A stretch of DNA of 64,000 nt from a bacterium (GCA_043767845.1 JAYUFZ010000018.1:3312-67311); one strand, 5' to 3'. Shown: positions 3,815 to 61,956, counted from the first letter of the stretch. Numbers and translations are program-made. The notes: generated from the letters alone by a model not told the origin.

Positions 3815-4189
3815 TTAGACGCGGCCGGCGACGAAGGTGACGGCGGCAAATGCCAATGAGGCAACAATGATGCCGATGATAGCATAGAGAATGGTGTTTT
3901 TGGCACCTTCGACAGCACTGGAGTTACCACTGGAGAGGACGTAGCGGAAACCACCAATGATCAGCATGATCACTGAGATGGCGCCTACTAGGAAGATCAA
4001 GGTGTTTGCAACCTTGCTGAAGATACCGCCAGCACCGAACAGTACGTTGGTGGCGTTGTTTGGCTGTGAGCCATTGATGCCGTTAATCAGGTCATCTGGG
4101 GCAGCCATTGCTGTACCGGCCAGCACGAGCGATGAGGTTGCTACTGCTGTAGCTTTCGCCGCAAAATTATTAATAGTGCTTACTTTCAC
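3815..4189 (-). CDS. T4SS pilin candidate (VirB2/TrbC-like), paralog 1 of 5
   Basis: Signal peptide (...LAGTAMA|AP), then two hydrophobic helices joined by a short polar loop: 'LIFLVGAISVIMLIIGGFRYVLSSGNSSAVEGAKNTILYAIIGIIVASLAF'. Same topology as VirB2/TrbC pilins and adjacent to VirB6/VirB3/VirB4 genes. Confidence 0.5.
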   Translation of the reverse strand: MKVSTINNFAAKATAVATSSLVLAGTAMAAPDDLINGINGSQPNNATNVLFGAGGIFSKVANTLIFLVGAISVIMLIIGGFRYVLSSGNSSAVEGAKNTILYAIIGIIVASLAFAAVTFVAGRV

Positions 4190-4277
4190 GTTTTCTCCTA
4201 TGCGTCTAATAAATTTATGAGATTACTTAGCATTATCATACCATACAGGGCACAAATGCAAGCTAGACTAAGCCGGA

Positions 4278-4649
4278 TTACACACGCGCGGCAATGAAAT
4301 GCGAAATTGCAAAGGCCATGCTGGCTACGATCAAACCGATAATGGCGTAGAGAATCGTATCCTTGGCCCCGCTCACCGCACTGGAGTTGCCGCTGGAGAG
4401 GACGTAGCGGAAACCACCAATAATGAGCATAATCACCGAGGCGGCCCCGACAATGAATACTAGCGTATTGGCCACGGCCATAAACACGCCTCCCGGAGCG
4501 AATAGCTCTGTTTTGGCGCCAGCCGGCTTGGTGTTATCAATGCCGTCGGTCACGGCTTTGATGGCGCCATATACCGGGGATGACAGGGCGAGGCTAAAAC
4601 CTACAATGGCAGCGGCTTGAGTTCTTTTGATGAGTGTTTGAACAGACAT
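4278..4649 (-). CDS. T4SS pilin candidate (VirB2/TrbC-like), paralog 2
   Basis: Start moved to ATG 4649 (MSVQTLIKR...), preceded by AAGGAGA at -6..-12; the track start 4721 overlaps the upstream paralog. Carries the shared motif 'GGFRYVLSSGNSSAVSGAKDTILYAIIGLIV'. Confidence 0.5.
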   Translation of the reverse strand: MSVQTLIKRTQAAAIVGFSLALSSPVYGAIKAVTDGIDNTKPAGAKTELFAPGGVFMAVANTLVFIVGAASVIMLIIGGFRYVLSSGNSSAVSGAKDTILYAIIGLIVASMAFAISHFIAARV

Positions 4650-4668
4650 GATTGTCTCCTTAGGTGGT

Positions 4669-4974
4669 TTAGAAACGGCCCGAGATAAAGGACGAGATAG
4701 CATAGCCGGAAGCGGCCACAATAATACCTACTACAGCATACAGAATACCATCCTTGGCGCTCTTTACAGAGCTTGAATTACCGGCCGATATGACATAACG
4801 AAGGCCACTTACGATAAGGACAATTACCGAGATGACGCCGACAATGAGCAGCAAAGTGTTAACAATCTTTACTGCTACTTCAGAAAGTGAGCCGCTAAAG
4901 AAGCCGGGGCCGCTATCAACAATACCAGTGTTACCAACTGTGATATCAGCCAAGAAGGGGAGTATGTGGTGCAT
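4669..4974 (-). CDS. T4SS pilin candidate (VirB2/TrbC-like), paralog 3
   Basis: 'LLLIVGVISVIVLIVSGLRYVISAGNSSSVKSAKDGILYAVVGIIVAASGYAI': same two-helix hairpin and motif. Confidence 0.5.
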   Translation of the reverse strand: MHHILPFLADITVGNTGIVDSGPGFFSGSLSEVAVKIVNTLLLIVGVISVIVLIVSGLRYVISAGNSSSVKSAKDGILYAVVGIIVAASGYAISSFISGRF

Positions 4975-4989
4975 AGTGGTTTTCCGAAA

Positions 4990-6037: not shown

Positions 6038-8617
6038 ATGAGACATTTCTTCAAAAAATTTAGCCACACACCCCTTGTGCTTGGCCTTGGCGCCGTGGCG
6101 CTAGCTGTTGCAGTCCTTTTGAGCCCGGCCAAAGCAATGGCGGCCAGCGAAAGCTATTTCTATGGCCCGAGCTCCAATTTCAACACCGTCGTCGGCCAAA
6201 ACGGCGTCTTCGCCAAACCGACAGCCTTTACGCTAGCTTCGGAAACTGCTGATGCCAGGACTTATACCGCTACCCAATCCGTCACCTGCAGCAGCAAACC
6301 GGCCACTTCGACGCTTACACTGGTGGCCAAAAAAACCGACGGCAGCGGAAGCTTGGCAGTCGACGCTGCCACCGCCAGCTGCTATACCAGCGCCCCCGAT
6401 GCCACCATAGCTGTAGCCGACACCCAGGCGGCTGCCAAGCCGACAGTTCAGACTGCCGCAGCTGGGACTCCCGCGACAAGCAGACCCGCCGTCAAGCGAT
6501 GTGATGGTGGAGTTCTTACTTGGTTTCTATGTTCGCTCTATGATTGGATACTCAAATCAATCGACCAGATTGAACAAAACGTCATCGTACCCTTCCTCAA
6601 GATAGACCCGCTGGTCTTTGGAGACGCCAACAACCCCGGGTATGCCATTTGGCAAGGCGTGCGTACTCTAGCAAACGTCGTCTTTGTCTTGGCCTTTTTG
6701 GTCATTATATTTGCCAACACTCTTTCGCTGTCACTTGATAGCTACTCACTCAAAAAAACTCTGCCCAAGCTTGTAGCCGCGGCTATCCTGGTGCAGTTCT
6801 CATACTTAATCGTTGGGCTGGCCATCGACCTTACCAATATCGTTGGCTCTGGCCTAGGTGATTTGGTCATGACGCCCTTCAAGGTCGCCCAGCAGACCCA
6901 TATTAGTAATGGTGTAGCGGCGGGCCTCTGGGGCGTCGGCATCGCTGGTAGTATTTCCGCTACCTTGGCGCTCGCTAGTGGCGTGCTGACCGGTGGCATT
7001 CTATTCGTATTAATCGGTGCTTTCTTCGCAGTATTGGGCGTATTCTTAACGCTCGTGGCACGGCAGATTCTCGTGACACTACTGCTTATACTCTCTCCCT
7101 TGGCCTTCGTTGCTTGGGTGCTACCAAATACTAGCCATTACTTCACTATGTGGCGCAAATCGCTGACACGGCTACTAGTGATGTACCCGATTGTCGTTTT
7201 ACTGTTTGTGAGCGGCAAAATATTTAGTACCGTTACAGTGGCAGCCAACGGTGGTGGCGCAGGTAATGACACAATTCGTTCCCTTATAAGTGTCGTCGCT
7301 GGCGTTATTCCACTCTTCCTAATCCCTGCCGCCTTCAAATTTGCCGGTGCCGCGCTCTCAACAGTAGATGGCCTCATGCAGACAGTCCATGGCCGTAGCC
7401 GCAAAGCCTTCGAGGGATCGGGAGTTTACGAGCGGGCAAAAGCCCGTACAGACCAGCGCCGCACCGAACTGGCTAGCGGAAATAAGATTAAGTTCCTGGG
7501 CTCCAAGAAACTAGGCGACGCAATTACGGGCAATAGCCTCACGACATTAACAGCTCAGGGTCTGCCAGGCCTACTCTCGTATGGGGCCGATCACGCGCGG
7601 GCAAGCCTCAAGGGCGTTCCTTATGCTGGCTCGCACCAAGACGTCAAGGCTGTCTCTGACTTCATGAAAGAACGCAACGCCTGGGCTAAACGCCTTGAAG
7701 AAGAAGGCTTAAGCTTCAATGCCTATGCCGTACTAAGTAGAGGCAATAAGTGGGCCGACAAAGAAATAACTGACCTTAATGGCAAAGCTCAAACTGCTGC
7801 TACATCATCGCAAACTGCTGCTCAAACTGCTGCGAACTTCACGGCTGCTGCTCAAGCCTCTCGCCAAGCTGCGCAACAAGCAACAGCCGCGGGCAATACG
7901 ACCCTCGCAACGCAACTCAGCCAAACAGCCACCCAGCAAGATAGCGAAGCTTCCCGCCAGACGGCAATTTCCACGAGCCAGGCACGCAAGCACAGCGGCT
8001 TTCTTAGTGAAGTTAGCTCCATGCAAGGGGCAAAGCTGGAAGCAAGCCGCTATATGGGCGTCAGCGCCGCCCGTGTAGCTGCATTTAAACACCTTTCTGA
8101 CATCGATGTAGCTGGTGAGGACGACCTGAATGCACTTAAAAATTACTCTGGTATGGACGGAGGCTCAACAGTCGGTAAGTTGCTCGCTACCCAGAATTGG
8201 GAGCAACTAAAAGAAGGTGCACGAAAGACTAATGTACACTTGGCTTATAAGAATGTTGATGGCAGTATTGACAACACTGAGCTCTACAAGTTTGTTCAAA
8301 AGAAGAATAAAACAGCCTGGGCTGATTACTCGCTGGATGCCATCCATCACATGGCAGAAACCGGCATCTTGCATGAATTAGCAAAAGATGAAGGTATGCG
8401 CAAAACACTTACTGGAGCAACAAGCCTAGAGGGTGGTCCAAGCCTGGCTGCCCCGCAGGACGTCTTAGTACGCAAAATTCTCGCTGAAACCGACCCTGAT
8501 CCAGCCGTGCGAATCAATGGAACTTTCTCAAGCTACAACAAAAATACGGTCAAGACCTTTACTAAGGCCCAAAAGGACCAATCCAAAGCGAGCGCTGATA
8601 CTCTCGATTTCTCATAG
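6038..8617 (+). CDS. VirB6/TrbL-like T4SS polytopic membrane protein (paralog 1) with secreted N-domain and low-complexity C-terminal tail
   Basis: Signal peptide; conserved 'CDGGVLTWFLCSLYDWILKSIDQ...GYAIWQGVRTLANVVFVLAFLVIIFANTLS' block; about six TM segments. Paralogous to the next gene. Tail is Gln/Ala/Thr-rich. Confidence 0.6.
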   Translation: MRHFFKKFSHTPLVLGLGAVALAVAVLLSPAKAMAASESYFYGPSSNFNTVVGQNGVFAKPTAFTLASETADARTYTATQSVTCSSKPATSTLTLVAKKTDGSGSLAVDAATASCYTSAPDATIAVADTQAAAKPTVQTAAAGTPATSRPAVKRCDGGVLTWFLCSLYDWILKSIDQIEQNVIVPFLKIDPLVFGDANNPGYAIWQGVRTLANVVFVLAFLVIIFANTLSLSLDSYSLKKTLPKLVAAAILVQFSYLIVGLAIDLTNIVGSGLGDLVMTPFKVAQQTHISNGVAAGLWGVGIAGSISATLALASGVLTGGILFVLIGAFFAVLGVFLTLVARQILVTLLLILSPLAFVAWVLPNTSHYFTMWRKSLTRLLVMYPIVVLLFVSGKIFSTVTVAANGGGAGNDTIRSLISVVAGVIPLFLIPAAFKFAGAALSTVDGLMQTVHGRSRKAFEGSGVYERAKARTDQRRTELASGNKIKFLGSKKLGDAITGNSLTTLTAQGLPGLLSYGADHARASLKGVPYAGSHQDVKAVSDFMKERNAWAKRLEEEGLSFNAYAVLSRGNKWADKEITDLNGKAQTAATSSQTAAQTAANFTAAAQASRQAAQQATAAGNTTLATQLSQTATQQDSEASRQTAISTSQARKHSGFLSEVSSMQGAKLEASRYMGVSAARVAAFKHLSDIDVAGEDDLNALKNYSGMDGGSTVGKLLATQNWEQLKEGARKTNVHLAYKNVDGSIDNTELYKFVQKKNKTAWADYSLDAIHHMAETGILHELAKDEGMRKTLTGATSLEGGPSLAAPQDVLVRKILAETDPDPAVRINGTFSSYNKNTVKTFTKAQKDQSKASADTLDFS

Positions 8618-8637
8618 ATTCACCGTCACGTTTTTAA

Positions 8638-8670
8638 ATAGACCACCCATTCTCAGCGGTCTATTTTTTT
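8638..8670 (+). terminator. rho-independent terminator (TAGACC-acccattctcagc-GGTCTA + T8)
   Basis: Hairpin followed by TTTTTTTT, 20 nt after the stop of VirB6-like paralog 1. Confidence 0.6.
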
Positions 8671-8699
8671 TGCCCCGCCGATGTAGTACCATAACTAGT

Positions 8700-11600
8700 A
8701 TGAGAAGAGGTGTAGCAAAGGCTTGGTTAGCGGCATTGGGGCTGTCGCTAGTTTTGCCATTCCTGATTTCTGAAGGCGCTCTGGCCGCCCCACTTAGAAA
8801 AGGTGTTTGGCAAAATGATTCTGCCATTCTTTTTGATGCAAAAACCTTCATCAACAAAACTGGCGACGGGTCTGGCTCTTTTGTGTATGCCAAAGATAGT
8901 AAAGGTGTCGATATTCCTACATCCGACAATAATAATATTTATTGTGTTAAGGATGGAGATAAGATATTTGTGCAACTGGGACAAACTTACAGCGACTTTA
9001 GTACAAATTACGGCATCCCATTCTATGTAATTCGCGATATAAACGATGCTCATGATCGAGCCAACTATGATGTATATGCAAGACTTCTCGTCAATAATAA
9101 CGGTGCAGTATTAACACAGACTCAGTTTAATAGTAAAAAAGGTAGTGAGTCAGTACCAATCAGCTATTATATCCAGTGTCGCAAGACTCAAGCTGAAGAG
9201 CCTATTGAGCTTACAAATGCCTCTGTATCAACTGACGCGTATGCCTGGAAATGGAAAAACGAAATTGATTCCACGAATGGTAAGAAGGCTTGGATATTAA
9301 ATAGCACTGATCCCAAATTCCCTGTAGGCTCCTACGTTTGGCAGGCGGATACAAACCATGATGGCTGCAAAGAATATATCGTACCTAGTGCCGATGGTAC
9401 TAAAGGCAAAAGATATCATGGCGGAGGAAACTCAGCTGGAACTCCACCGCACTGTATCTACGACGATCCGCCAGAAGATATTACTATTGCTAACGCTACC
9501 CATAAAGACGATACGACGGATCCCGGTACCTCCCCTGGTAATCCAGTAAATCCAGGCGGATCAGGCAAGGCTAGTTGTGATGCTGGCGTCCTCGGATGGT
9601 TCTTGTGTCCAGTAATTCGCATGGCCGTGAACCTCTATCAGATTTTGAGCGACCAAGTCATCAAACTACTCGATCTAGGGTCTCTTGAAAGTGGTAGCAA
9701 TGTATTTCTTATATGGCAGAATATGCGCAATTTGGCCAATGTGCTCTTTGTATTAATCTTCCTGATTATCATATTCTCGAACACTCTCTCAATAGGTATT
9801 GATAATTACACCTTTAAAAAGATGCTCCCACGCCTCGTTGCCGCAGCGGTTCTTGTTCAGTTTTCCTGGGTAATCATGACCCTACTATTTGATATCACAG
9901 CGGCAGTTGGAGCGGGGATCGGTGACCTTATTAGTCTGGCAGTAGGTAGCGGTGTACCGAGTGCAGGTAGTACACCTAAAGGCTTTGCGCTAGTCGGAAC
10001 GGCCTTCGGGTTGCTTGGCATTGGCGGGGGGGCGATCGCTGCCATTGTACTTTTTCCTGAGCTCCTGATCCTAGCGCTTCTCTTTACAGTTGGGGCCCTC
10101 TTCGGAATCATGGCAGTATTCTTTACCATTACGATACGTTCTTTCTTGCTTTCCATACTAGTGGCAATTGCGCCGCTAGCTTTTGTGGCTTGGATCCTAC
10201 CAAATACCGAGAGCTACTTTAAAACCTGGTGGAAGACACTTATTCGACTGCTGCTCATGTATCCAATTATCAAGGCGATGTTCGCCTTCGCCGAGGTAGG
10301 CGGCCTACTTACGGTAGGATCAAATTTCTCTAATTTGCATAATGGGCTCGATAAGGCGATGGCGGGCGTTATGGCCGCCCTTTTGCCAATTGTAGCCTTC
10401 TACGCTACCACAAAAGTCTTTACCTGGGCGGGCGGTGCGATGTCGCTGTTTAGCAATGCAGTCAACAAGCGGGCTAGATCGGCCCAAGCGCGCATCGCTA
10501 AGTCCAACGTGCGACGAGACGCAAAAGTCGGGCTTACGAATCGGGTTGCAAACTTCAAAGCTGGTGGTGGGCTTAAGGTGCCACTAAGTTCTAGTCCTAT
10601 CCTAAACAGTGACTCCAGGCTGGGTAGGGCCGCAGCTGGGGCTGCGCGTATAGCTACCCTGACTTCCAAGAATAATGCTACAAGAGGTCGTAATACTGCT
10701 GCAAAGGCAGCTGGGGAAGCAATGGCACTTGAAGGCTGGACGGCGGATGATTATAAAATGCAGATGGGCCAAAAAACTTACTACGACAGCCAGACCGCCG
10801 ATCTCAAAAAGAAAGTCCAATCAGGTGAACTCACGCAGGCAGAGGCAGATCTTAAGCAGTCTAAGCTAAAAGCCAGTCGAGACCGTACCGAGAAGTATTG
10901 GGGAAGTAGTTCGAGGTCTCTTGCTGCTCAACAAAACCTCACTTCAAATGGCTTAGTCGACGACAGTACCCGACAAAACATTATTGACCGGTTCGGCAAG
11001 GACCAGTTTGCCCAGCAACTTTGGACTAATTCAGCAGCTACTGCACGAAACTCTAATCCCCAGCTTATGTTTACAAGCCTGGAGAGCGATGCAGCAGGCA
11101 AGCCGGTAATTGATCGAGCAGGGCTTAAGAGTCATCTGGCTAAGCAGAATCAAGCCACCTGGGCAAGCTTCAGTGAACCGGCTATTCAATCTATGGCCGA
11201 TAACGGTATCCTTGACGAATTCGCCAATGCCAGTAGCTCGAATGCCGAGCTTCTCCTTTCACTTCGATCAAACGAAGGCGGCCCTAGTATTGGTGCTGCT
11301 CAGCAAGCAATTATTGCCGGGGCAGGCACGCACAAAGACGACGCCGGCGTAATTCACAACCCTGGGTCCGTCAACAGGGCGATTGATGCAGTAGCTGCGT
11401 CCAGGGCAGCTGCACGGGCCACTGTAGGGACACCGGCAGGTTCAACAACAACTACCACAACAACTGCCGGCGGTGTTAGTGGCTCAGCGGCCAGCGCGTG
11501 GGCTCCGCCAAGTGGCGGCCTACCAGTCGGCAGCACAGTCCCAAGTATAGGTGGCGTTACCCCAGTCGCGACTCCAGTACCGACCGCGAGCGGTAAGGTG

Positions 11601-12398
11601 GCTTCCGTTGGAGGCTCCAGTTCTGGCGGTGTACTTGGCGGCGTTCTTGGTAGCAGTGGATCTTCAGGCGGCGGCGGTTCATACAGTCCAGGAGTTACGG
11701 CCTCAGCCGTTAGCAGCACACCGGGAAACCCCGGTGCCAACCCAAATACTTCCCGGATTACCCCACCGAGCTCAGTTGGCTGGACACCGACAGCTAGTGG
11801 CTCAGGGCTAGTAATCCCACCGAGCTCCGGCGCCCCGGCACCTACCGTATCAGGCCCGTCAGCACCATCACCAGAAGAGTTAGCCGAACGTGTTGAGCGA
11901 AGCGTGTTCGACGCTACAGCTGCAGCAAGAAAGGCAGCCGATGCAGGAGCTGCAGCAGCAGCCGCTACTTCAACCCCAACGGGCGCATCATCTGGCACCA
12001 CCACAGACTATGCCCCCGGATCAGGCATAAGCAACCCGGATATCGACGTTAAGGTCGAAGCCCCGAGCTCAGCAACAGTCCTCCCCTCGACAGCAGGTGC
12101 AGTACCATTCAGCGCAGGAGCGCCAGCTAGTACAGGGAATAGCAGCGCAACTGGTAGCCCAGCAGCAGGCATGGCCAATCCAGCCCCAGCTCTAGCCACG
12201 CCACCATCAAGCAAGCCTGTCGCGGGTCCAACAAATATGCCCACCAGCGAACCAAACAGCGGCCCAGCAGCTGCAAGCCCGACCCTGGACATCAACTCCA
12301 CGGAGCTACCCAGCCGCCCCTCACTCGGTGAAATAATTAGACCGACCGTAGCCTCCCCAGATGAGACCCCTCCGGCCGATCCACCAACGACTCCATAG
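8700..12398 (+). CDS. VirB6/TrbL-like T4SS polytopic membrane protein (paralog 2), 1232 aa, with ~600-aa Ser/Thr/Pro/Ala/Gly-rich C-terminal tail
   Basis: Start moved to ATG 8700 (MRRGVAKAWLAALGLSLVLPFLISEGALA = signal peptide), downstream of the terminator. Conserved 'CDAGVLGWFLCPVIRMAVNLYQ...FLIWQNMRNLANVLFVLIFLIIIFSNTLS' plus TM bundle. The tail has TTTTTT, SSGSSGGGGS and AAAAAAT runs. Confidence 0.6.
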   Translation: MRRGVAKAWLAALGLSLVLPFLISEGALAAPLRKGVWQNDSAILFDAKTFINKTGDGSGSFVYAKDSKGVDIPTSDNNNIYCVKDGDKIFVQLGQTYSDFSTNYGIPFYVIRDINDAHDRANYDVYARLLVNNNGAVLTQTQFNSKKGSESVPISYYIQCRKTQAEEPIELTNASVSTDAYAWKWKNEIDSTNGKKAWILNSTDPKFPVGSYVWQADTNHDGCKEYIVPSADGTKGKRYHGGGNSAGTPPHCIYDDPPEDITIANATHKDDTTDPGTSPGNPVNPGGSGKASCDAGVLGWFLCPVIRMAVNLYQILSDQVIKLLDLGSLESGSNVFLIWQNMRNLANVLFVLIFLIIIFSNTLSIGIDNYTFKKMLPRLVAAAVLVQFSWVIMTLLFDITAAVGAGIGDLISLAVGSGVPSAGSTPKGFALVGTAFGLLGIGGGAIAAIVLFPELLILALLFTVGALFGIMAVFFTITIRSFLLSILVAIAPLAFVAWILPNTESYFKTWWKTLIRLLLMYPIIKAMFAFAEVGGLLTVGSNFSNLHNGLDKAMAGVMAALLPIVAFYATTKVFTWAGGAMSLFSNAVNKRARSAQARIAKSNVRRDAKVGLTNRVANFKAGGGLKVPLSSSPILNSDSRLGRAAAGAARIATLTSKNNATRGRNTAAKAAGEAMALEGWTADDYKMQMGQKTYYDSQTADLKKKVQSGELTQAEADLKQSKLKASRDRTEKYWGSSSRSLAAQQNLTSNGLVDDSTRQNIIDRFGKDQFAQQLWTNSAATARNSNPQLMFTSLESDAAGKPVIDRAGLKSHLAKQNQATWASFSEPAIQSMADNGILDEFANASSSNAELLLSLRSNEGGPSIGAAQQAIIAGAGTHKDDAGVIHNPGSVNRAIDAVAASRAAARATVGTPAGSTTTTTTTAGGVSGSAASAWAPPSGGLPVGSTVPSIGGVTPVATPVPTASGKVASVGGSSSGGVLGGVLGSSGSSGGGGSYSPGVTASAVSSTPGNPGANPNTSRITPPSSVGWTPTASGSGLVIPPSSGAPAPTVSGPSAPSPEELAERVERSVFDATAAARKAADAGAAAAAATSTPTGASSGTTTDYAPGSGISNPDIDVKVEAPSSATVLPSTAGAVPFSAGAPASTGNSSATGSPAAGMANPAPALATPPSSKPVAGPTNMPTSEPNSGPAAASPTLDINSTELPSRPSLGEIIRPTVASPDETPPADPPTTP

Positions 12399-14418: not shown

Positions 14419-16269
14419 ATGGCCTTCGGAAAAAAAGTTGATCCAAACGCTCAGGCAGAGGCGGTAAAGCGCCAAGAACAGGCTGAAGCCGAGCAGATTT
14501 ACCGCCAGGGAATCGTCTCGCTGCGCGACCTGATTGCTCCGCCATCGCTGGAGATTGAGTCTGGCTATTTCCGCATCGGCAAGCGCTTTGCTCGGACAAT
14601 ATTCGTCTACGGCTACCCCCGCCAAATATTCACCGGCTGGATGTCACCGATCATAAATCTCGATGAAGTGCTGGACCTTAGCATTAATATTTATCCGGTC
14701 GAGTCAGCCGTCGTTTTAAATAACCTGAAGCGTAAGGTAGGCCAGCTAGAGGCCGATTTCACCATCAACCAGGAAAAGGGGAGAGTACGCGACCCCGGGC
14801 TTGAAGCCGCCATCCAGGACGCCGAGGAATTGCGCGACAAGCTCCAGGTCGGCGAGGAGCGCTTCTTCCGTTTCGGGCTATATGTCACGATGTACGCTGG
14901 CACGCTTGAGGAACTCAATCAAGTACAGCGCAAGATCGAAGGCATATTCGGCCAATCACTTATCTATACCAAGCCAGCTACCCTTCAAATGGAGCAGGGC
15001 TTTAATTCCAGCCTACCGCTCGGCGCCGACCAGCTCCAAGTGTCGAGAAATATGGATACTGGTTCGCTTTCGACAAGCTTCCCCTTCACCTCGGCCGAAC
15101 TCAGCCGCAATGAAGGCGTGCTCTACGGCCTCAACCGCCACAATAACGGTCTAGTGCTCTTCGACAGATTTAGCCTGGAAAATGCCAATATGGTTGTCTT
15201 CGCTAAATCCGGTGGTGGTAAATCCTTCGCCGTGAAGCTTGAAGCCGTACGCAGCCTGATGCTCGGCGTTGAGATATTGATTATCGATCCCGAGAACGAG
15301 TACCAGACGCTCTGCGACGCAGTTGGCGGTAGCTACCTTCGCCTCAGCCTAGCCTCGGCCACCCGCCTGAATCCCTTCGATCTGCCGCACGTACTCGATA
15401 GCGAGGATGCCGACAACGCTTTGCGCGCCAATATTATTACCCTCCATGGCCTTTTGCGACTGATGATGGGGGGTGCCCAAGCCCAAGCCATGGGTGCGGC
15501 TACCGGCGGCATGGTCTCGAGTGCCAATGCTCTCAGCCCAGCCGAGGACGCTGACCTCGACGTGGCCATCATAAATACCTACGCCCGCGCCGGGATTACC
15601 AATGACCCACTGACCCATGGCGCCACCCCACCAACCATGAACGATCTCTACAACACGCTAGTAAGTATGACTGGCAACGGTCCAGCCCTAGCCCAGCGTC
15701 TGCGTAAATACACCACGGGTACTTTTTCTGGAATCTTTAGCCAGCAGTCCAACGTCGATATCAATAATAAGTTTGTGGTCTTTAATATTCGTGACCTAGA
15801 AGACGAGCTCCGCCCAGTGGCTATGTACATTGTGCTCAACTACATTTGGAACCGGGTCAAAAGTGATAAGCGCAAACGTATTCTGATAGTCGACGAAGCC
15901 TGGCAGCTCATGAAGTACGATGACTCCGCCAACTTCATGTTCTCTATAGCCAAGCGCGCCCGTAAGTATTACCTCGGCCTCACTACTATTTCGCAAGATG
16001 TGGAAGATTTCTTAAGCTCCAGGCTTGGTAGGGCAGTGGTCTCCAACTCCTCACTTCAACTCTTGCTCAAGCAAGCGCCCTCTGCCGTCGACCTCATAGC
16101 CGATACCTTCAAGCTGACCGACGAGGAAAAGAAACGCCTTACCCAATTCCCGGTGGGCGAGGGCCTCTTCTTCGCGGGCCTCAACCATATTATTATTAGA
16201 ATACTGGCCTCACAAACTGAGTCGCAACTCATAAGCACGAACCCGCAACGAAGAGGGGACGGAGTATAG
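14419..16269 (+). CDS. virB4: VirB4/TraE-family T4SS ATPase (ATPase portion)
   Basis: Walker A 'VVFAKSGGGKSFAVK', Walker B 'ILIVDEAWQLM', and 'RTIFVYGYPRQIFTGWMSPI' typical of VirB4. Starts 2 nt after the previous stop, in a different frame. Confidence 0.8.
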   Translation: MAFGKKVDPNAQAEAVKRQEQAEAEQIYRQGIVSLRDLIAPPSLEIESGYFRIGKRFARTIFVYGYPRQIFTGWMSPIINLDEVLDLSINIYPVESAVVLNNLKRKVGQLEADFTINQEKGRVRDPGLEAAIQDAEELRDKLQVGEERFFRFGLYVTMYAGTLEELNQVQRKIEGIFGQSLIYTKPATLQMEQGFNSSLPLGADQLQVSRNMDTGSLSTSFPFTSAELSRNEGVLYGLNRHNNGLVLFDRFSLENANMVVFAKSGGGKSFAVKLEAVRSLMLGVEILIIDPENEYQTLCDAVGGSYLRLSLASATRLNPFDLPHVLDSEDADNALRANIITLHGLLRLMMGGAQAQAMGAATGGMVSSANALSPAEDADLDVAIINTYARAGITNDPLTHGATPPTMNDLYNTLVSMTGNGPALAQRLRKYTTGTFSGIFSQQSNVDINNKFVVFNIRDLEDELRPVAMYIVLNYIWNRVKSDKRKRILIVDEAWQLMKYDDSANFMFSIAKRARKYYLGLTTISQDVEDFLSSRLGRAVVSNSSLQLLLKQAPSAVDLIADTFKLTDEEKKRLTQFPVGEGLFFAGLNHIIIRILASQTESQLISTNPQRRGDGV

Positions 16270-28602: not shown

Positions 28603-29952
28603 GTGAAGAAAACCCATCAAGAAACTATTGTCGCCCTAGCTACTCCTTCAGGAGCGGGCGGCATTGCTATTATTCGGATCAGCGGACCGGATTCGGCGGC
28701 GGTTATTCGTCGTATTCATTCTCGGGCGGATCAAGCTATCTCGTCCCCACGCACCCTGGTGCTTGGTCGGCTATTGAGCGATGGCTCGGCCATCGACCAG
28801 GGCTTGGTAGTGTATATGCCCGGCCCCAAGTCCTACACCGGCGAGGATGTGGCTGAGCTCCAAGTCCACACTAGCCCAGCAATTATTAAGCTATTACTTG
28901 AAGCCGCTGTGCAGTTCGGATCAAGGCTCGCCGAACCGGGCGAGTTTACCAAGCGTGCCTACCTCAACGGCAAACTCGACCTCGCCCAGGCTGAGGCCGT
29001 AGCCGATGTGATTGCGGCCAGCAGTACCTCAGCGGTCAAGCTGGCTACCGCCCAGCTGGCTGGATCCTTGTCGAGGCAGGTAGGCGAGCAACGTGCCGCA
29101 CTTGTGGGGATTGTGGCCATGCTGGTGGCTAATCTTGACTTTGGCGAAGAGGATATTCCAGATATCGACGCCGATGAATTGTTGGCCGACTTACAGCGGA
29201 TACAGGCGACCATGAACAGCTGGCTGGCCTCAAGCAAGCAGGGGATGATTATGCGCCATGGACTGGCCGTAGCAATTGTTGGCCTGCCGAACGCCGGCAA
29301 GTCGAGTCTACTGAATGCCTTGATTGGTTATGAACGGGCAATAGTGACCAATATTGCCGGCACCACCCGCGACACCCTGGAAGAGCAGATCGAGATCGAT
29401 GGTTTGGCGGTCCGCATTGTCGACACGGCTGGGCTGACCGAGACCAGTGACGTCGTAGAGGGCATTGGCGTTGCGCGGGCCCACCTGGCGGCGGAGGAGG
29501 CGGACTTGGTGCTTTTGTGCGCCGCAGCCGACCAGGACTTGGGCCAGCTGAAGTTTAAACCCCCGAAGGGTATACCGATGATCGGTGTCCAGACCAAGAT
29601 CGATGAGCTGAGCGGCGCCATTGGGTGGCCCAAGTCGGTTGAGAAGTCAGTAGCCACCTCGGCCAAGACTGGCCAGGGGCTAGACGAGCTGCGCCATGTG
29701 ATTAGCCAGGCGGCGGGGGAGACTGGGTCGGGCGAGATGCCGGTGCTTGCCAACCTGCGCCATATTGAGGCTGTTCGCGAATCACTTGGCTATCTTGAGC
29801 AAACGATTCAAGCCCTAGAAGATGAAGCACCATTAGACATTGTGGCGGGGGAGTTGACGCTTGCGGCCGAGGCACTCTCGTCGATCGTTGGTGAAAACGT
29901 TGGCAAGGAGATTATTGATGCGGTGTTTTCTAAGTTTTGCATCGGAAAGTGA
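28603..29952 (+). CDS. mnmE: tRNA modification GTPase MnmE
   Basis: GTG start; 'TIVALATPSGAGGIAIIRISG', G-domain 'GLPNAGKSSLLNAL..DTAG', and terminal 'CIGK'. Confidence 0.9.
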   Translation: MKKTHQETIVALATPSGAGGIAIIRISGPDSAAVIRRIHSRADQAISSPRTLVLGRLLSDGSAIDQGLVVYMPGPKSYTGEDVAELQVHTSPAIIKLLLEAAVQFGSRLAEPGEFTKRAYLNGKLDLAQAEAVADVIAASSTSAVKLATAQLAGSLSRQVGEQRAALVGIVAMLVANLDFGEEDIPDIDADELLADLQRIQATMNSWLASSKQGMIMRHGLAVAIVGLPNAGKSSLLNALIGYERAIVTNIAGTTRDTLEEQIEIDGLAVRIVDTAGLTETSDVVEGIGVARAHLAAEEADLVLLCAAADQDLGQLKFKPPKGIPMIGVQTKIDELSGAIGWPKSVEKSVATSAKTGQGLDELRHVISQAAGETGSGEMPVLANLRHIEAVRESLGYLEQTIQALEDEAPLDIVAGELTLAAEALSSIVGENVGKEIIDAVFSKFCIGK

Positions 29953-52076: not shown

Positions 52077-52151
52077 TCCGAAGTAGCTCAGTGGTAGAGC
52101 AGTTCGCTGTTAACGAATTGGTCGTCGGTTCGAATCCGACCTTCGGAGCCA
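52077..52151 (+). tRNA. tRNA-Asn (anticodon GTT), CCA encoded
   Basis: Hand-folded cloverleaf. Acceptor TCCGAAG/CTTCGGA, D-arm GCTC-AGTGGTA-GAGC, anticodon arm GTTCG-CTGTTAA-CGAAT, T-arm GTCGG-TTCGAAT-CCGAC, discriminator G + CCA. Confidence 0.85.
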
Positions 52152-58557: not shown

Positions 58558-58585
58558 TCAGCCGGGTAGTGCTATAGTGACAAAT

Positions 58586-58617
58586 AAAGGTCCCGCCATG
58601 CGCGGGACCTTTATTTT
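58586..58617 (+). terminator. rho-independent terminator (AAAGGTCCCGC-catg-GCGGGACCTTT + ATTTT)
   Basis: Perfect 11-bp stem plus T-run, 30 nt after the YciI-like stop. Marks the left edge of the GC-rich island. Confidence 0.7.
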
Positions 58618-58681
58618 AGGGTAGTAGGAAGTGTCACTTGCGCTAAGAAATGATAGTTTTATTGATGAATGAAACTTAGTG

Positions 58682-58746
58682 TTGACAGAACACAAACAAC
58701 GGCCTAGTATGTAAGTGTACGATGTACATTAACATAAGGAGCAGAG
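58682..58746 (+). promoter_or_regulatory. consensus-like promoter (-35 TTGACA, 17-nt spacer, -10 TAGTAT) plus strong SD AAGGAG for the SPFH gene
   Basis: 'TTGACAgaacacaaacaacggccTAGTAT...aacataAGGAGcagagATG' read directly. Confidence 0.55.
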
Positions 58747-59610
58747 ATGTTTGGATTCCACTACTTCCGCAAAGCCGGCCCCACCGACCACGTCGTTGTC
58801 TTCCGCCGTGGCCAAAAGCGCGCCGAGGGCCTCGGGCTGACCTTCTGGGCTGGCCCCAGGACTACGGCCGCCATCGTCCCCGTCAACATCCAAAGCATCC
58901 CGTTCCAGGTTACGGAAGTAACCAAGGACGACCAAGCGGTAGTGGTGTCCGGTGAGATCACCGGGATATTTAATCCCGAGGTAGCCTTACAGCTGTACGA
59001 TTTCACCATCGACACCGAGACCGCCAATTACCGCAGCGACGGTGTCGAGCGTGCCCAGGCAATGGTCCGCAACCGCGTGCCGGCCGCTGTGCGGCCGCTG
59101 CTGGCGGCTGTGGACTTGCAGGAGGTCATCAAGAACAAGGCGGCTATTCAGCAAGCCTTGGCCGCGGCCCTGATTGGCACGGCTGTGGATGATCTAGGCG
59201 TGAGAGTCACCGATGTCGCCATCCACACCATCACCCCGTCCAATGCCGAACTGGCCCGAGCCTTAGAGGCCGAAGAGCGCGAACGGATGCTCTCCAAAGC
59301 CGACATGGCTACCGCCGACCGGCGCATGAACATCGCCCAAAAAGACCGCGAAACCAGGCTGTACGAGGCTCAAACGGCCGAGCACCTAGAAGCCGAGCGG
59401 GCCAAGCTGGTCGACGCTCGGGTTGCCAACCAACAAAAGGAAGCCGAAGGTGAGGCAGAGGCCATCAAGGCTCGGCTCGGGGCATACGAAGGTGCCGACA
59501 CCCAAGTGCTCCTGGCCATGGCCTTCCAGCAGATGGCTGCCGGACACATCGGCGAACTCAACATCACGCCAGACCTTCTGACAGCACTGACTCGCGGGCG
59601 GGACAAGTGA
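58747..59610 (+). CDS. SPFH/Band-7 (flotillin/YqiK-like) domain protein, GC-rich
   Basis: N-terminal SPFH core 'TDHVVVFRRGQ..LTFWAGPRTTAAIVPVNIQSIPFQVTEV'. C-terminal Ala/Glu-rich coiled coil 'AERAKLVDARVANQQKEAEGEAEAIKARLGAYEG'. GC3 ~80% vs ~55% elsewhere. Confidence 0.6.
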   Translation: MFGFHYFRKAGPTDHVVVFRRGQKRAEGLGLTFWAGPRTTAAIVPVNIQSIPFQVTEVTKDDQAVVVSGEITGIFNPEVALQLYDFTIDTETANYRSDGVERAQAMVRNRVPAAVRPLLAAVDLQEVIKNKAAIQQALAAALIGTAVDDLGVRVTDVAIHTITPSNAELARALEAEERERMLSKADMATADRRMNIAQKDRETRLYEAQTAEHLEAERAKLVDARVANQQKEAEGEAEAIKARLGAYEGADTQVLLAMAFQQMAAGHIGELNITPDLLTALTRGRDK

Positions 59611-60518
59611 GCGTCGACCGCTTGGTGCTCGTAACCAAGAAGACGGCGCTCGAGGAACTTCTCGAACGGCACTACTCCAGAGGCCAGGCTCAGTTTTTCC
59701 TGGCTTCGCGGGGGAGCGCTATCGAGCCCTACATCCGCACCCACGAGGTCTATCACAAGGCGCTGGACAAGCTGGTCACAACGCTGCCCAGGGACATTCC
59801 CCATGCAAGTGTTGAGCGCGACGAGCTGTACAACTTCCTTTTCCGGCCTACCGACTTAGTGGTGGCTATCGGCCCCGATGGACTGTTCGTCAACTTGGCC
59901 AAATACCTGCACGGCCAGCCAGTCATTGGGGTCAATCCCGACCCGACGACCATCAAGGGCGTAACCATGCGGCATAAGCCCTGCCAGGTCCCAGCTGCAA
60001 TTGTGGCAGTTGCATCCGGGCAAGCCGAGCTTGACTCGGTAACGCTGGCTGAGCTCACCACCAACGACGGGCGGCGTTTGACCGCCGTTAACGACTTCTT
60101 GATCGGCCGCTGCGACCAGGTATCGGCCCGCTATCGCCTGGGCCACGGGCTGGGGCAAGAGCACCAGTCATCGAGCGGCATCCTGGTCTCTACCGGGCTA
60201 GGGCAGTCAGGCTGGCTGAGCTCGATCATCAACATGGTCACCAGCTTTGGTGGACAGCCAGGTACGCTCGGAACATTGGCCTGGGGCGATCCAGCGCTAA
60301 CCTTCGTAGTACGCGAGCCGTTTGTATCAAGCGATACCCAGGCCGAGCTAGTACATGGGCTCATCCAGGCCAAGTTGCTGCTGACCGTGGAGTCTGAAAT
60401 GCCCGAAGGTGGCTACATTATCTCCGACGGCATGGTGGACGACGGCTTGCAGTTCAATGCCGGCACCACCATAACCATCAAACCAGCACTCGAGCAAGCC
60501 AAGCTGGTCAAGCCATGA
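59607..60518 (+). CDS. NAD-kinase-fold (NadK/ATP-NAD kinase superfamily) protein, translationally coupled (GTGA) to the SPFH gene
   Basis: GTG start overlapping the TGA stop. 'DLVVAIGPDGLF' (GGDG-like), 'NDFLIGR' (NE/D motif), 'SSGILVSTGLGQSGWLSS' (cf. NadK 'DGlivSTPTGSTAYSlSAGG'). Confidence 0.5.
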   Translation: MSVDRLVLVTKKTALEELLERHYSRGQAQFFLASRGSAIEPYIRTHEVYHKALDKLVTTLPRDIPHASVERDELYNFLFRPTDLVVAIGPDGLFVNLAKYLHGQPVIGVNPDPTTIKGVTMRHKPCQVPAAIVAVASGQAELDSVTLAELTTNDGRRLTAVNDFLIGRCDQVSARYRLGHGLGQEHQSSSGILVSTGLGQSGWLSSIINMVTSFGGQPGTLGTLAWGDPALTFVVREPFVSSDTQAELVHGLIQAKLLLTVESEMPEGGYIISDGMVDDGLQFNAGTTITIKPALEQAKLVKP

Positions 60519-60528
60519 AGCACACCGC

Positions 60529-60590
60529 CCCTGCTAGTAACCCGAAAGGGAAATTAGCGGGGGACTTTTTATTAGGTGCAGCCAGTCGGT
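60529..60590 (+). terminator. structured terminator: outer stem CCCCTGCTA/TTAGCGGGGG enclosing CCC-GAAA-GGG tetraloop hairpin, followed by ACTTTTTATT
   Basis: Read directly, 10 nt after the NadK-like stop. Confidence 0.55.
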
Positions 60591-60684
60591 TGGAGCCAAC
60601 AAACTTTCTCAATGGAAAGGGACGGTTTGTTGGTAGCGGTGGGGCTTAGTCTAGTCTTGTCCAGTGCGGCGGTTCCCAAAAAGT

Positions 60685-60715
60685 GAGAGGAGGGTTTTAT
60701 AAGGACCCTCCGGAA
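60685..60715 (-). terminator. rho-independent terminator for minus-strand small gene (GGAGGGT-cttataaa-ACCCTCC, then TCTCACTTTTTGGG on minus)
   Basis: 7-bp stem plus T-run on the minus strand, immediately downstream of the 60727 stop. Confidence 0.45.
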
Positions 60716-60726
60716 CCTTTTGCTAC

Positions 60727-60969
60727 TCAGCAGCTGTCAGAGTGGGTGATACATCCGCCGACCGCCGTGTCGCAACCGCCGGGGCACATACGCCCAGCGG
60801 CAACCTCCCGGCTTATTTGCTGATCGTAATCCCAGCGTCGGCGGGCATCTTCGGCATCGTCACCGCGCATTGCCCGAGCGCTTTGCTCGAATCCCTGGGC
60901 TCGCAATCTTGCCGCTCGAGCGTGGCCTTCCAGCTCGGCTGCGCGGGCCATGTCTTCGTAGCTTGGCAT
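60727..60969 (-). CDS. small GC-rich hypothetical protein with C-terminal 4-Cys cluster (CPGGCDTAVGGCITHSDSC)
   Basis: 80-aa ORF, GC-rich codon usage matching the island, own terminator. The overlapping plus-strand ORF 60742..61053 is the alternative. Confidence 0.3.
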   Translation of the reverse strand: MPSYEDMARAAELEGHARAARLRAQGFEQSARAMRGDDAEDARRRWDYDQQISREVAAGRMCPGGCDTAVGGCITHSDSC

Positions 60970-61091
60970 ATTTCTCCTTTTCGAGGTGCTCTGAGCTTAG
61001 CTGGCTATCCAGCTTGTCAGTCGGGGCTGTCCCTTGGCCTGGTTTTAGGTTGACAACAGGATAGCAACAATAAAGTAAAAAGTCAATAATA

Positions 61092-61185
61092 TATTGACGA
61101 ATAAGAGAATCATAAGATAGAATAATATTAATTATAATGTCAAAATAGCATTGACAAAAATAATCATCAGCTGTATTATTGACAT
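61092..61185 (+). promoter_or_regulatory. AT-rich regulatory region with two perfect palindromes (GTCAATA-ata-TATTGAC 61092-61108; TGTCAA-aatagca-TTGACA 61138-61157) and repeated TTGAC boxes upstream of the TrmB-family regulator
   Basis: Read directly. The last TTGACA is followed by 'aaaataatcatcagctgtatTATTGACATatg'. Confidence 0.5.
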
Positions 61186-61956
61186 ATGAATACTGATCTA
61201 CTCCAGCAAGTCGGCCTTACACCGAGCCAGGCAAAAGCCTATATTGCTTTAGTTAAAAATGGTGAGCTGACAGCCCCAGAGTTAGCACTCAAGATCGGTG
61301 AAGCGCGCACCAACTGCTATATGGTGCTTGATAAGCTTGTGGGCTTGGGCCTGGCGCAGAAAGCTACCACAACTAAAAAACTCACCTACTTCCCGACCAA
61401 TCCAACCAATCTGGAGCGGCTGATAGAAGAAAAGCGGCGGACTATTATGAGCACCGAGAAGCAGGTTCGTGACAGTATGCCCCAGCTACTCAGCTATTTT
61501 TATACCTATCAGCACCAGCCGGGAGTGCGTTTCTTCCAGGGCAAAGCTGGGATTGCCAAAATGTATGAGGATCAGCGCCGCACAGGCAAAGAGATCTTCT
61601 TCATCCGTTCTAATGCCGACTTCAATGTGCTGGGCAAGGATCTCTACGACCACGTCGAGGCGCGCGCCAAGCTGGGCATCAAATCCCACGGCATAGAGCC
61701 GGCCGAGCCGGATAACATAGAATTTGGACGCCAAAATGATGCTCGCCTGAAGCGCGACATGCTCTGGGCGCCACCGGAAGCCTTTGACGCGCCAGTAAAT
61801 ATCTACATCTATGGCAACAAGACGGCACTCATCTCCTATGGCGAGGAGGTCGTAGGTACGATTATCGAAAGTGCCCAGATTGCCGAAGGCATGAAGCAAC
61901 TCTTTGGGCTAGCGCGACGAGCGATTAGTGCCATGAACGACAACCCTGGCGCTTGA
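61186..61956 (+). CDS. TrmB-family transcriptional regulator
   Basis: 'LQQVGLTPSQAKAYIALVKNGELTAPELALKIGEARTNCYMVLDKLVGLGLAQK' is the TrmB N-terminal wHTH signature. 256 aa with a C-terminal sensor domain. Confidence 0.7.
   Translation: MNTDLLQQVGLTPSQAKAYIALVKNGELTAPELALKIGEARTNCYMVLDKLVGLGLAQKATTTKKLTYFPTNPTNLERLIEEKRRTIMSTEKQVRDSMPQLLSYFYTYQHQPGVRFFQGKAGIAKMYEDQRRTGKEIFFIRSNADFNVLGKDLYDHVEARAKLGIKSHGIEPAEPDNIEFGRQNDARLKRDMLWAPPEAFDAPVNIYIYGNKTALISYGEEVVGTIIESAQIAEGMKQLFGLARRAISAMNDNPGA

Follow-up and report, generated by a model that had tools for sequence, protein, structure and literature searches.

We analysed a 64,000-nucleotide stretch of bacterial DNA (GCA_043767845.1 JAYUFZ010000018.1:3312-67311), hereafter the window, whose positions are counted from its first letter. 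Among its 55 open reading frames (ORFs), two adjacent genes on the same strand are the subject of this study: an SPFH/Band_7 gene, followed by the gene of a 303-aa kinase. The GTG start codon of the kinase gene shares the four letters GTGA with the TGA stop codon of the SPFH gene. An earlier annotation made by a model from the sequence alone (the initial annotation) had pointed out this GTGA-coupled couple of SPFH and NAD-kinase-fold genes (NAD, nicotinamide adenine dinucleotide), and both ORFs are present as it described. We argue below that the two genes probably form an NrtR-controlled operon of an SPFH protein and an NADK2-like NAD(H) kinase, a copy of a module of NAD(P) metabolism.

Gene structure and expression signals of the operon

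The pair carries its own expression signals (Table 1). Both the promoter TTGACA-17-TAGTAT and the strong AAGGAG Shine-Dalgarno (SD) sequence reported by the initial annotation were found in front of the SPFH gene. Its remark that most genes here have a weak SD or none agrees with our count of 34 of the 55 window ORFs without any SD core, a count that is rough because the start codons are longest-ORF guesses. The strong terminator on the left was also recovered. This hairpin is an intrinsic terminator, bidirectional, that belongs to the upstream YCII-like gene, and the operon region is bounded by it on the left. A further hairpin, overlooked previously, closes the bicistronic operon behind the kinase gene. 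The initial annotation had drawn an island of three genes from 58682 to 61060. Since the operon ends at this terminator, and since the GC content at third codon positions (GC3) of the small 4-Cys ORF beyond it is ordinary, the odd unit covers about 58.68-60.57 kb and comprises two genes rather than three.

Table 1 Position of the operon, its signals and selected other genes in the window
Feature	Position	Strand	Description
Left terminator	58582..58616	.	Perfect hairpin with 15-bp arms (100% complementary), A-tract and T-tract; dG -23.9 kcal/mol, z -5.4
Operator candidate 1 (NrtR-type)	58676..58696	+	TTAGTGTTGACAGAACACAAA; 21-bp palindrome, GT-N7-AC core, overlaps the -35 hexamer
Sigma-70-type promoter TTGACA-17-TAGTAT	58682..58710	+	10/12 matches
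Operator candidate 2 (NrtR-type)	58712..58732	+	TAAGTGTACGATGTACATTAA; 2 mismatches; between -10 box and SD, spans the likely transcription start
Shine-Dalgarno AAGGAG	58736..58741	+	5 nt upstream of ATG
SPFH/Band-7 gene	58747..59610	+	287 aa; Pfam Band_7 E 2.6e-12; AlphaFold2 model
NADK2-like kinase gene	59607..60518	+	303 aa; profile, model and fold search
Operon terminator, intrinsic	60528..60563	+	GC-rich hairpin, then ACTTTTTATT; dG -28.2, z -3.8
4-Cys ORF, neighbour outside the module	60727..60969	-	80 aa; C-terminal motif CPGGCDTAVGGCITHSDSC; convergent to the operon
TraG/VirB4-like P-loop ATPase gene	14419..16269	+	
dnaA	25163..26560	-	
mnmE	28603..29952	+	

Fold and predicted family of the kinase

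The kinase family is large and well conserved, with 272 matches in a word-indexed search and members in more than 576 species genomes in a genome scan; the nearest relatives of the window protein are 73, 72 and 64% identical to it. The window kinase itself has no Pfam match, and against the NCBIfam NadK equivalog it reaches 15.8 bits, below the cut-off of 316. Of its relatives, 11 of 25 touch PF01513 weakly, one touches DAGK_cat (E 0.0023), and some are labelled 'sugar kinase' by NCBI. A profile of the family matched human mitochondrial NADK2 with an E value of 3e-19 (72 bits) and canonical NadKs with an E value of about 1e-5 (27 bits). Moreover, a Foldseek search of the Protein Data Bank (PDB) with the AlphaFold2 model of the kinase, whose predicted local distance difference test score (pLDDT) is 90.1, returned NAD kinases exclusively, with E values down to 3.6e-20. 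The best superposition was with NADK2 (7r4j, template modelling (TM) score 0.75), and bacterial NadKs came next with TM scores of 0.57-0.65. The initial annotation was therefore right about the NAD-kinase fold of the second protein; the two domains of that fold are established by profile and structure where Pfam is silent. Judged by profile bits and TM score, the kinase appears to be closer to NADK2 than to canonical NadK.

We then compared the sequence motifs. The nucleotide loop of the window kinase reads G-P-D-G at residues 89-92 and G[PQI]DG in the family alignment, with Asp91 and Gly92 invariant; GGDG is present in 58 of 65 homologues of C5orf33 (PMC3535332). The NE/D motif takes the form AVNDF, with N162 and D163 nearly invariant across the family, and in the glycine-rich segment SSGILVSTGLGQSGW (SSSG...GQSGW) residues S189, S190, G191, T196, G197, G199, G202 and W203 are all invariant. 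Both the NDF motif and the glycine-rich segment align to NADK2. Three hallmarks distinguish C5orf33/NADK3-type enzymes from canonical NAD kinases: motif 1, Ser for Asp, and Trp for Tyr (PMC3535332). In the window kinase, motif 1 (P-x-x-G-x-N-x-D-P) is present as QPVIGVNPDP, with Pro where the NADK2 type has T/S; S190 corresponds to Ser306 and W203 to Trp319 of C5orf33, and S201 lies within the position that allows K/S/T/R.

The likeness to NADK2/NADK3 of the eukaryotic mitochondrial clade thus comprises the top match in both sequence and fold, an N-terminal helical extension (query residues 4-121 align), motif 1, the Ser that replaces the canonical Asp before the glycine-rich segment, and the invariant Trp that replaces the canonical Tyr. 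In contrast to NADK2, the window protein is bacterial, has 303 rather than 442 residues and no targeting peptide, reads GPDG for GGDG and NPDP for N(T/S)DP, and belongs to a family that always stands behind an SPFH gene. NADK2 also carries the 39-residue EMKA element, a dimerisation insert of animal NADK2 (PMC9245612). At this place the model of the window kinase has only a shorter, low-confidence insert of about 25 residues (204-230, after Trp203). With canonical NadK/PpnK (PF01513 and PF20143), the window kinase has in common the two-domain fold, the catalytic Asp-Gly, the NE/D motif and the glycine-rich loop. Unlike these enzymes, to which it is only 10-18% identical (E about 1e-5, below curated cut-offs), it has an extra N-terminal helical segment, Ser/Trp for Asp/Tyr, an obligate SPFH partner and an NrtR-type promoter.

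Pairing of the two genes across bacteria

We recovered a sample of 80 genome loci with the kinase profile and examined the gene in front of the kinase. Without exception, that gene is directly adjacent, runs on the same strand and encodes an SPFH homologue; the 80 loci come from Myxococcota, Chloroflexota, Planctomycetota, Acidobacteriota, Bacteroidota, Firmicutes, Proteobacteria, Spirochaetota, Elusimicrobiota, Armatimonadota, Cyanobacteria-related lineages and the Candidate Phyla Radiation (CPR). The same order is seen in contigs of closer relatives. The distance from SPFH stop to kinase start, measured at 78 loci, has a median of 5.5 nt, with overlap at 16 loci and 0-20 nt at 41. Reciprocally, two SPFH homologues picked independently of the kinase are each directly followed by it. 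The kinase family also occurs on plasmids, in 71 of 72,556 PLSDB records, and the pair is found for example on Methylomonas pUP202 and Acinetobacter lwoffii pALWED1.1. The pairing singled out by the initial annotation thus recurs in genomes, on plasmids and on a viral contig, and the pair in the window is a copy of a widespread, strictly conserved two-gene module.

Some of these copies deserve a separate description. On the mobilizable plasmid pALWED1.1 (L176, NZ_CP082144.1 127013-137909), a NUDIX(NrtR-like)-SPFH-kinase module adjoins tetR(H)-tet(H); its SPFH gene can be read in the DNA (3961-4977), although the PLSDB gene table does not list it. Kinase matches of 40.5% identity, as in pALWED1.1, also occur in plasmid records of Moraxella and of an 'uncultured bacterium'. 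The viral contig, which owes this status to its IMG/VR classification, carries a divergent pair with a kinase of 30% identity and a 4-nt overlap (L174:1272-3232, IMGVR_UViG_3300017971_002526). Apparent SPFH-kinase fusions (ORFs of 572-602 aa at L007 and L057) are probably over-extended ORFs and were left uncounted; at L007, the 602-aa ORF overlaps a separate SPFH ORF.

NAD-salvage neighbourhoods

Neighbour clustering showed that an NrtR-type Nudix/winged-helix regulator flanks the pair in 22 of the 80 loci, and NAMPT, NADAR or DUF4291 stands beside the pair in some of these nrtR-bearing loci. Genes for NAD salvage and its control, namely nadV, NMNAT-like genes, pncA, nadE, pncB and nrtR, are among the neighbours of the pair in relatives. 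Three closer, CPR-type relatives illustrate the arrangement. At L168:5442-15354, the order is nrtR-pncA-SPFH-kinase-nadE-ADP-ribosylglycohydrolase-two unassigned genes-pncB; here the pair interrupts a near-complete Preiss-Handler salvage cluster. L083 carries genes for Macro, a nucleoside deoxyribosyltransferase, an NMNAT-like protein, NrtR, SPFH, kinase, two more NMNAT-like proteins and CinA, and L170 has nrtR-SPFH-kinase. In the Saccharimonadia window studied here, the pair stands alone with no NAD gene nearby.

Candidate NrtR-type operators upstream of the pair

In relatives, a 21-bp palindrome, TTAGTGTA-N5-TACACTAA, stands upstream of nrtR, pncA and SPFH genes. We scanned the window for it with up to three mismatches to the motif derived from these relatives. 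The window contains exactly two matches in 64 kb, with 0.12 expected, and these are the two operator candidates of Table 1; none of 100 shuffles contained two matches. Across 84 kinase loci (1.0 Mb), there were 60 matches, 43 of them within 400 nt upstream of an SPFH start, a zone that makes up 3.4% of the sequence (binomial p 9e-50). The 43 matches fall in 32 loci, often as tandem pairs. The spacing of the tandem boxes upstream of the SPFH gene is similar in many relatives, and the window copy keeps their operator architecture.

Known NrtR boxes have 21-bp symmetry and a GT-N7-AC core, and ADP-ribose is the reported effector of the regulator (Rodionov et al. 2008, PMC2330246). The present system resembles the published regulon in its 21-bp GT-N7-AC palindromes upstream of nrtR, pncA and, here, the SPFH-kinase operon, and in that nrtR adjoins the pair in many relatives. 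It differs in that the published regulon is without NAD kinase or SPFH and in that no nrtR lies within the 64-kb window. The enrichment of candidate operators upstream of SPFH genes therefore argues that the operon is a recurrent member of the NrtR regulon.

The SPFH partner

SPFH proteins are usually associated with lipids or membranes. The one encoded in the window has no transmembrane segment (maximum 19-residue hydropathy 1.25), its N-terminus opens with SPFH beta-strands, and neither it nor the kinase has a membrane anchor. Its model (pLDDT 86.5) consists of an SPFH domain (residues 1-165), an 80-residue helix (167-245) and C-terminal helices. The fold matches HflK/C, erlin, prohibitin, stomatin, flotillin and major vault protein (MVP), with the HflK/C structures 9cz2, 7vhq and 7wi3 on top. 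Like the ring- and cage-forming members of the superfamily, the window protein combines the SPFH fold with a long coiled coil. It and its closest relatives represent a short form of 285-295 aa (window, P0128, P0129, L063, L083, L166 and L168), which has 36 + 13 coiled-coil residues fewer than most homologues, the long form having about 320-350 aa; any cage would therefore differ in height between the two. Solved complexes of major vault protein with ADP-ribose, ADP and PARP4 are available (PDB 9mxj, 9mxv, 9bw6). They may link SPFH-like cages to NAD/ADP-ribose chemistry, and this is possibly a coincidence.

Two known systems offer themselves for comparison. In the SPFH-NfeD operons (QmcA-YbbJ, YqiK-YqiJ, PH1511-PH1510), an SPFH gene is likewise tightly coupled to one partner gene. 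In the window, by contrast, the partner is a soluble kinase and the SPFH protein is without the N-terminal membrane anchor. NfeD was absent from the window operon, from the neighbour families that recur at the related loci and from the Pfam-annotated contexts of relatives, in agreement with the remark of the initial annotation that this is no textbook SPFH operon. The HflK/C-FtsH system is the top fold match and provides a precedent for an SPFH assembly that controls the access of substrates to an enzyme. It differs in that HflK/C is membrane-anchored and hetero-oligomeric and has a membrane protease as its client, whereas the window encodes a single anchor-less SPFH protein and a soluble kinase, for which a complex is predicted by analogy.

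Composition, host and origin of the window copy

The SPFH and kinase genes have GC3 values of 0.743 and 0.737, against a background of 0.562 for 52 other window ORFs (standard deviation (sd) 0.074, range 0.37-0.68). Both genes have a z of about 2.4, the top of the 55 ORFs. Measured against the pooled background, their codon-bias distance amounts to 0.43-0.44, compared with 0.306±0.052 for genes of similar length, a deviation of about 2.4 sd. The compositional deviation of both genes is thus real and the largest in the window, but moderate. GC3 is not uniform across the window ORFs, and the initial estimate of about 80% against about 55% was correct in its background and in the existence of a deviation; the value itself is 0.74, a moderate outlier that excludes the 4-Cys ORF. 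Similarly, the codon usage that it called sharply different is the most biased in the window, though moderately so.

In its Candidatus Saccharimonadia genome, the window is situated close to the origin of replication, beside a type-IV-secretion-like cluster, and contains dnaA, mnmE and the gene of a TraG/VirB4-like P-loop ATPase (Table 1); no Pfam family matched the large ORFs at 6038-12398. Named relatives of its DnaA are mostly from Candidatus Saccharimonadia/Saccharibacteria or other Patescibacteria; the best DnaA matches have 81% identity and the next 66-67%. The host is a Candidatus Saccharimonadia bacterium. A crude neighbour-joining (NJ) tree places the window kinase in a clade of 46 members, all of which are either labelled Uhrbacteria or metagenome sequences without a label; the 80 non-CPR genome loci are not represented in it. 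As to the donor lineage sought in the initial annotation, the kinase groups with CPR-type sequences and not with a distant donor, which weakens the case for horizontal acquisition. The closest relatives of the kinase carry the pair in other genomic contexts. In one of them (L082, 72% identity), the pair has a GC3 of 0.81-0.83 and is rich compared with the downstream genes. In the same relative (L082:1077-1631), the last 4 nt of the kinase gene are shared with a downstream gene of the glyoxalase family, at the place where the window has a terminator.

We also looked for traces of insertion. Searches for flanking repeats or insertion scars around the pair returned short chance matches only, no integrase, transposase or mobility gene stands beside it, and the nearest tRNA gene, tRNA-Asn at 52077, is 6.5 kb off. 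On the left flank, 80 contigs with relatives of the ATPase (62-76% identity) share none of the window's neighbours, nor the pair; since the neighbours are not syntenic there, presence or absence at this site says little. On the right flank, one contig, L171, keeps the 4-Cys and TrmB-like genes without the pair. Horizontal acquisition from a GC-richer, probably CPR-type source is plausible because the family is plasmid-borne, because close relatives carry the pair in differing contexts and because the flank in L171 is without it; the direction and timing of such a transfer are what we infer from these observations. The recent acquisition proposed in the initial annotation therefore finds agreement in the deviating composition, the plasmid copies (71) and the viral contig, and is opposed by the missing hallmarks of mobility and a z of only about 2.4.

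The 4-Cys ORF and the right flank

By Pfam, the other neighbours of the pair are YCII, ArsR-type helix-turn-helix (HTH), TrmB-type HTH and PIG-L genes. The small convergent ORF to the right, which the initial annotation had described together with a terminator of its own, exists, with four C-terminal Cys, its own AAGGAG, promoter-like sites and a weaker hairpin. Its raw GC is high because of its Ala/Arg/Gly content, and its GC3 of 0.63 (z 0.9) is ordinary for the window. The family is small, with 6 matches at E ≤ 1e-3 among 1.84 billion representatives; P0287, P0288 and L171:6001-6243 belong to it. Its members have a helical N-terminal half and the conserved C-terminus EVAAGRMCPGGCDxxVGGCxxHxDxC. 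A 4-Cys homologue stands beside the pair in 0 of 84 loci, and the TrmB-like gene likewise never accompanies the pair. In L171, on the other hand, a 4-Cys gene (61-63% identity) and a TrmB-like gene (53%) lie 3.1 kb apart, divergent as in the window, and the contig has no SPFH or kinase gene. The 4-Cys ORF, which had been thought to complete the island, thus belongs with the TrmB-like flank and lies outside the SPFH-kinase module. The TrmB-like protein had no close relatives in the JGI metagenomes when right-flank synteny was tested. We also considered and rejected the 4-Cys protein as a precursor resembling ribosomally synthesised and post-translationally modified peptides (RiPPs), as no modification enzymes are encoded nearby, and as a part of the module, being unlinked to the pair and co-occurring with the TrmB-like gene.

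An AT-rich region, as initially noted, is present at 61000-61200 (GC 0.33), between the 4-Cys and TrmB-like genes. Of the 7 promoter-like sites of our scan, 6 lie at 61050-61250 (GC 0.33), where TTGAC(A/G/T) hexamers recur on either strand. This AT-rich stretch is probably the divergent, regulated promoter region of these two genes and not the boundary of an island.

Discussion

Our analysis places a translationally coupled SPFH-kinase pair under candidate NrtR operators, and we propose the following mechanism for it. The operon unit consists of the promoter, the two candidate operators, the SPFH gene, the kinase gene and the terminator. The kinase, of the NADK2/NADK3 type, most likely turns NAD+ or NADH into NADP(H), and translational coupling would fix the proportion of SPFH protein to kinase. 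By analogy with HflK/C-FtsH and further SPFH assemblies, the anchor-less SPFH protein most likely oligomerises, and the resulting ring or cage would hold the kinase, localise it or gate it. An NrtR-type Nudix repressor most likely occupies both palindromes of the promoter. ADP-ribose, from the breakdown of NAD, would release this repressor, and the capacity for NADP(H) synthesis would then rise alongside NAD salvage.

Several observations weigh against this interpretation. The founding study of the NrtR regulon lists no NAD kinase or SPFH gene (PMC2330246), and the boxes, being assigned to NrtR by position and resemblance, are candidate operators. The 64-kb window contains no nrtR, pncA, nadE, pncB, NMNAT-like gene or second NADK, and none of these turned up in 0.98 Mb of related contigs, which sample neighbourhoods only. 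The kinase stays below the Pfam and NCBIfam cut-offs, the second Gly of GGDG is replaced in its family, and phosphorylation of NAD+/NADH by this family is a prediction from sequence and fold. An interaction between SPFH protein and kinase is suggested by gene linkage and by analogy. The support for acquisition is moderate, given a GC3 z of about 2.4 over a heterogeneous background, the absence of repeats, integrase and adjacent tRNA, the non-syntenic flanks and the crude NJ tree.

Three other explanations of the locus have to be weighed. The initial annotation offered a recently acquired 2.4-kb island of three genes, serving as a cassette for defence or stress, or else as a kinase module associated with membrane microdomains. 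The GC3 and codon bias at the top of the window, the promoter and terminators of its own, the plasmid-borne relatives, one of them beside tet(H), and a marginal PADLOC match of the SPFH protein to PbeC (E 0.0015, 15 bits) are in its favour. PADLOC returned nothing for the kinase or the 4-Cys protein, and a defence assignment attempted with Pfam, NCBIfam and PADLOC on all three proteins did not emerge, only Band_7 being informative. Furthermore, the genes that recur beside the pair are nrtR and those of NAD salvage rather than defence genes, neither protein of the pair has a membrane anchor, and the 4-Cys ORF has a normal GC3, never accompanies the pair and is syntenic with a TrmB-like gene in a relative without it. 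The three-gene unit is thus largely refuted, and we consider this explanation very improbable. It is also rather unlikely, though far less so, that the kinase acts on another substrate, be it an intermediate of the NAD pathway (nicotinic acid adenine dinucleotide (NaAD), nicotinamide mononucleotide (NMN) or ADP-ribose) or a lipid presented by an SPFH scaffold. GPDG in place of GGDG, the lack of a curated NAD_kinase match, the relative that touches DAGK_cat and the 'sugar kinase' labels would fit such a role; in addition, SPFH proteins are usually lipid- or membrane-associated (PMC11775717), and the non-CPR genomes presumably already own a canonical nadK. Against another substrate stand the conserved NE/D motif, the TGxGSxGW segment and the NAD-contacting Ser and Trp of the NADK2 type, the best matches in sequence and fold, which are all NAD kinases, and an SPFH protein without a membrane segment.

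A different kind of alternative concerns the origin of the pair rather than its activity. The pair could be native housekeeping equipment, the kinase being the main or only NAD kinase of the host and its high GC3 reflecting expression-linked codon choice. An NADK2-type enzyme is indeed the sole NAD kinase in some eukaryotes (PMC3535332), and the strong promoter and SD would suit such a role. The window holds no other NADK-superfamily gene, and neither do 0.98 Mb of related contigs, the latter being a sample of neighbourhoods and not of whole genomes. The kinase clade contains only CPR-labelled and unlabelled metagenome sequences, and the relatives of the kinase (73, 72 and 64%) are about as distant as those of DnaA (81, 67 and 66%) and of the ATPase (76 and 72%). 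However, our data span 64 kb of the host genome, 80 related contigs carry the ATPase without the pair nearby, L171 likewise has no pair, the pair of the closest relative stands in a different context and is again GC3-rich compared with its neighbours, and the family is demonstrably mobile, being found on plasmids. We regard a native origin of this kind as unlikely, if somewhat less so than another substrate. An NrtR-controlled operon of an SPFH protein and an NADK2-like NAD(H) kinase is what we judge to be the probable reading of the locus.

In textbooks and in recent structural work, bacteria are described as making NADP(H) with a single NadK (PMC9245612, PMC6675116), and the prokaryotic provenance of NADK2/NADK3 of the eukaryotic mitochondrial clade is reported to be uncertain (PMC6675116). 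The searchable literature, with subscription-only papers and curated regulon databases outside its scope, describes no pairing of SPFH/Band 7 with an NAD kinase, nothing that joins NrtR with SPFH and nothing relevant on COG3199. We tentatively raise the idea, which may well prove wrong, that the pair represents a second bacterial route to NADP(H), in which a membrane-free SPFH ring or cage carries an NADK2-type kinase within it or on it and ADP-ribose, sensed by NrtR, switches the system on, and that the family is at the same time the missing prokaryotic relative of the mitochondrial/peroxisomal clade NADK2/NADK3 of eukaryotes.

The module suggests a second kind of bacterial NAD kinase, related to NADK2, always partnered by SPFH and wired to the control of NAD salvage. 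For SPFH biology it would, if true, offer a simple, soluble two-component system whose client is a metabolic enzyme, and for NAD biology it would add a new member to the NrtR regulon. The pair also provides a concrete candidate for a bacterial kin of mitochondrial NADK2, and in the genome-reduced Patescibacteria it would bear on how NADP gets supplied.

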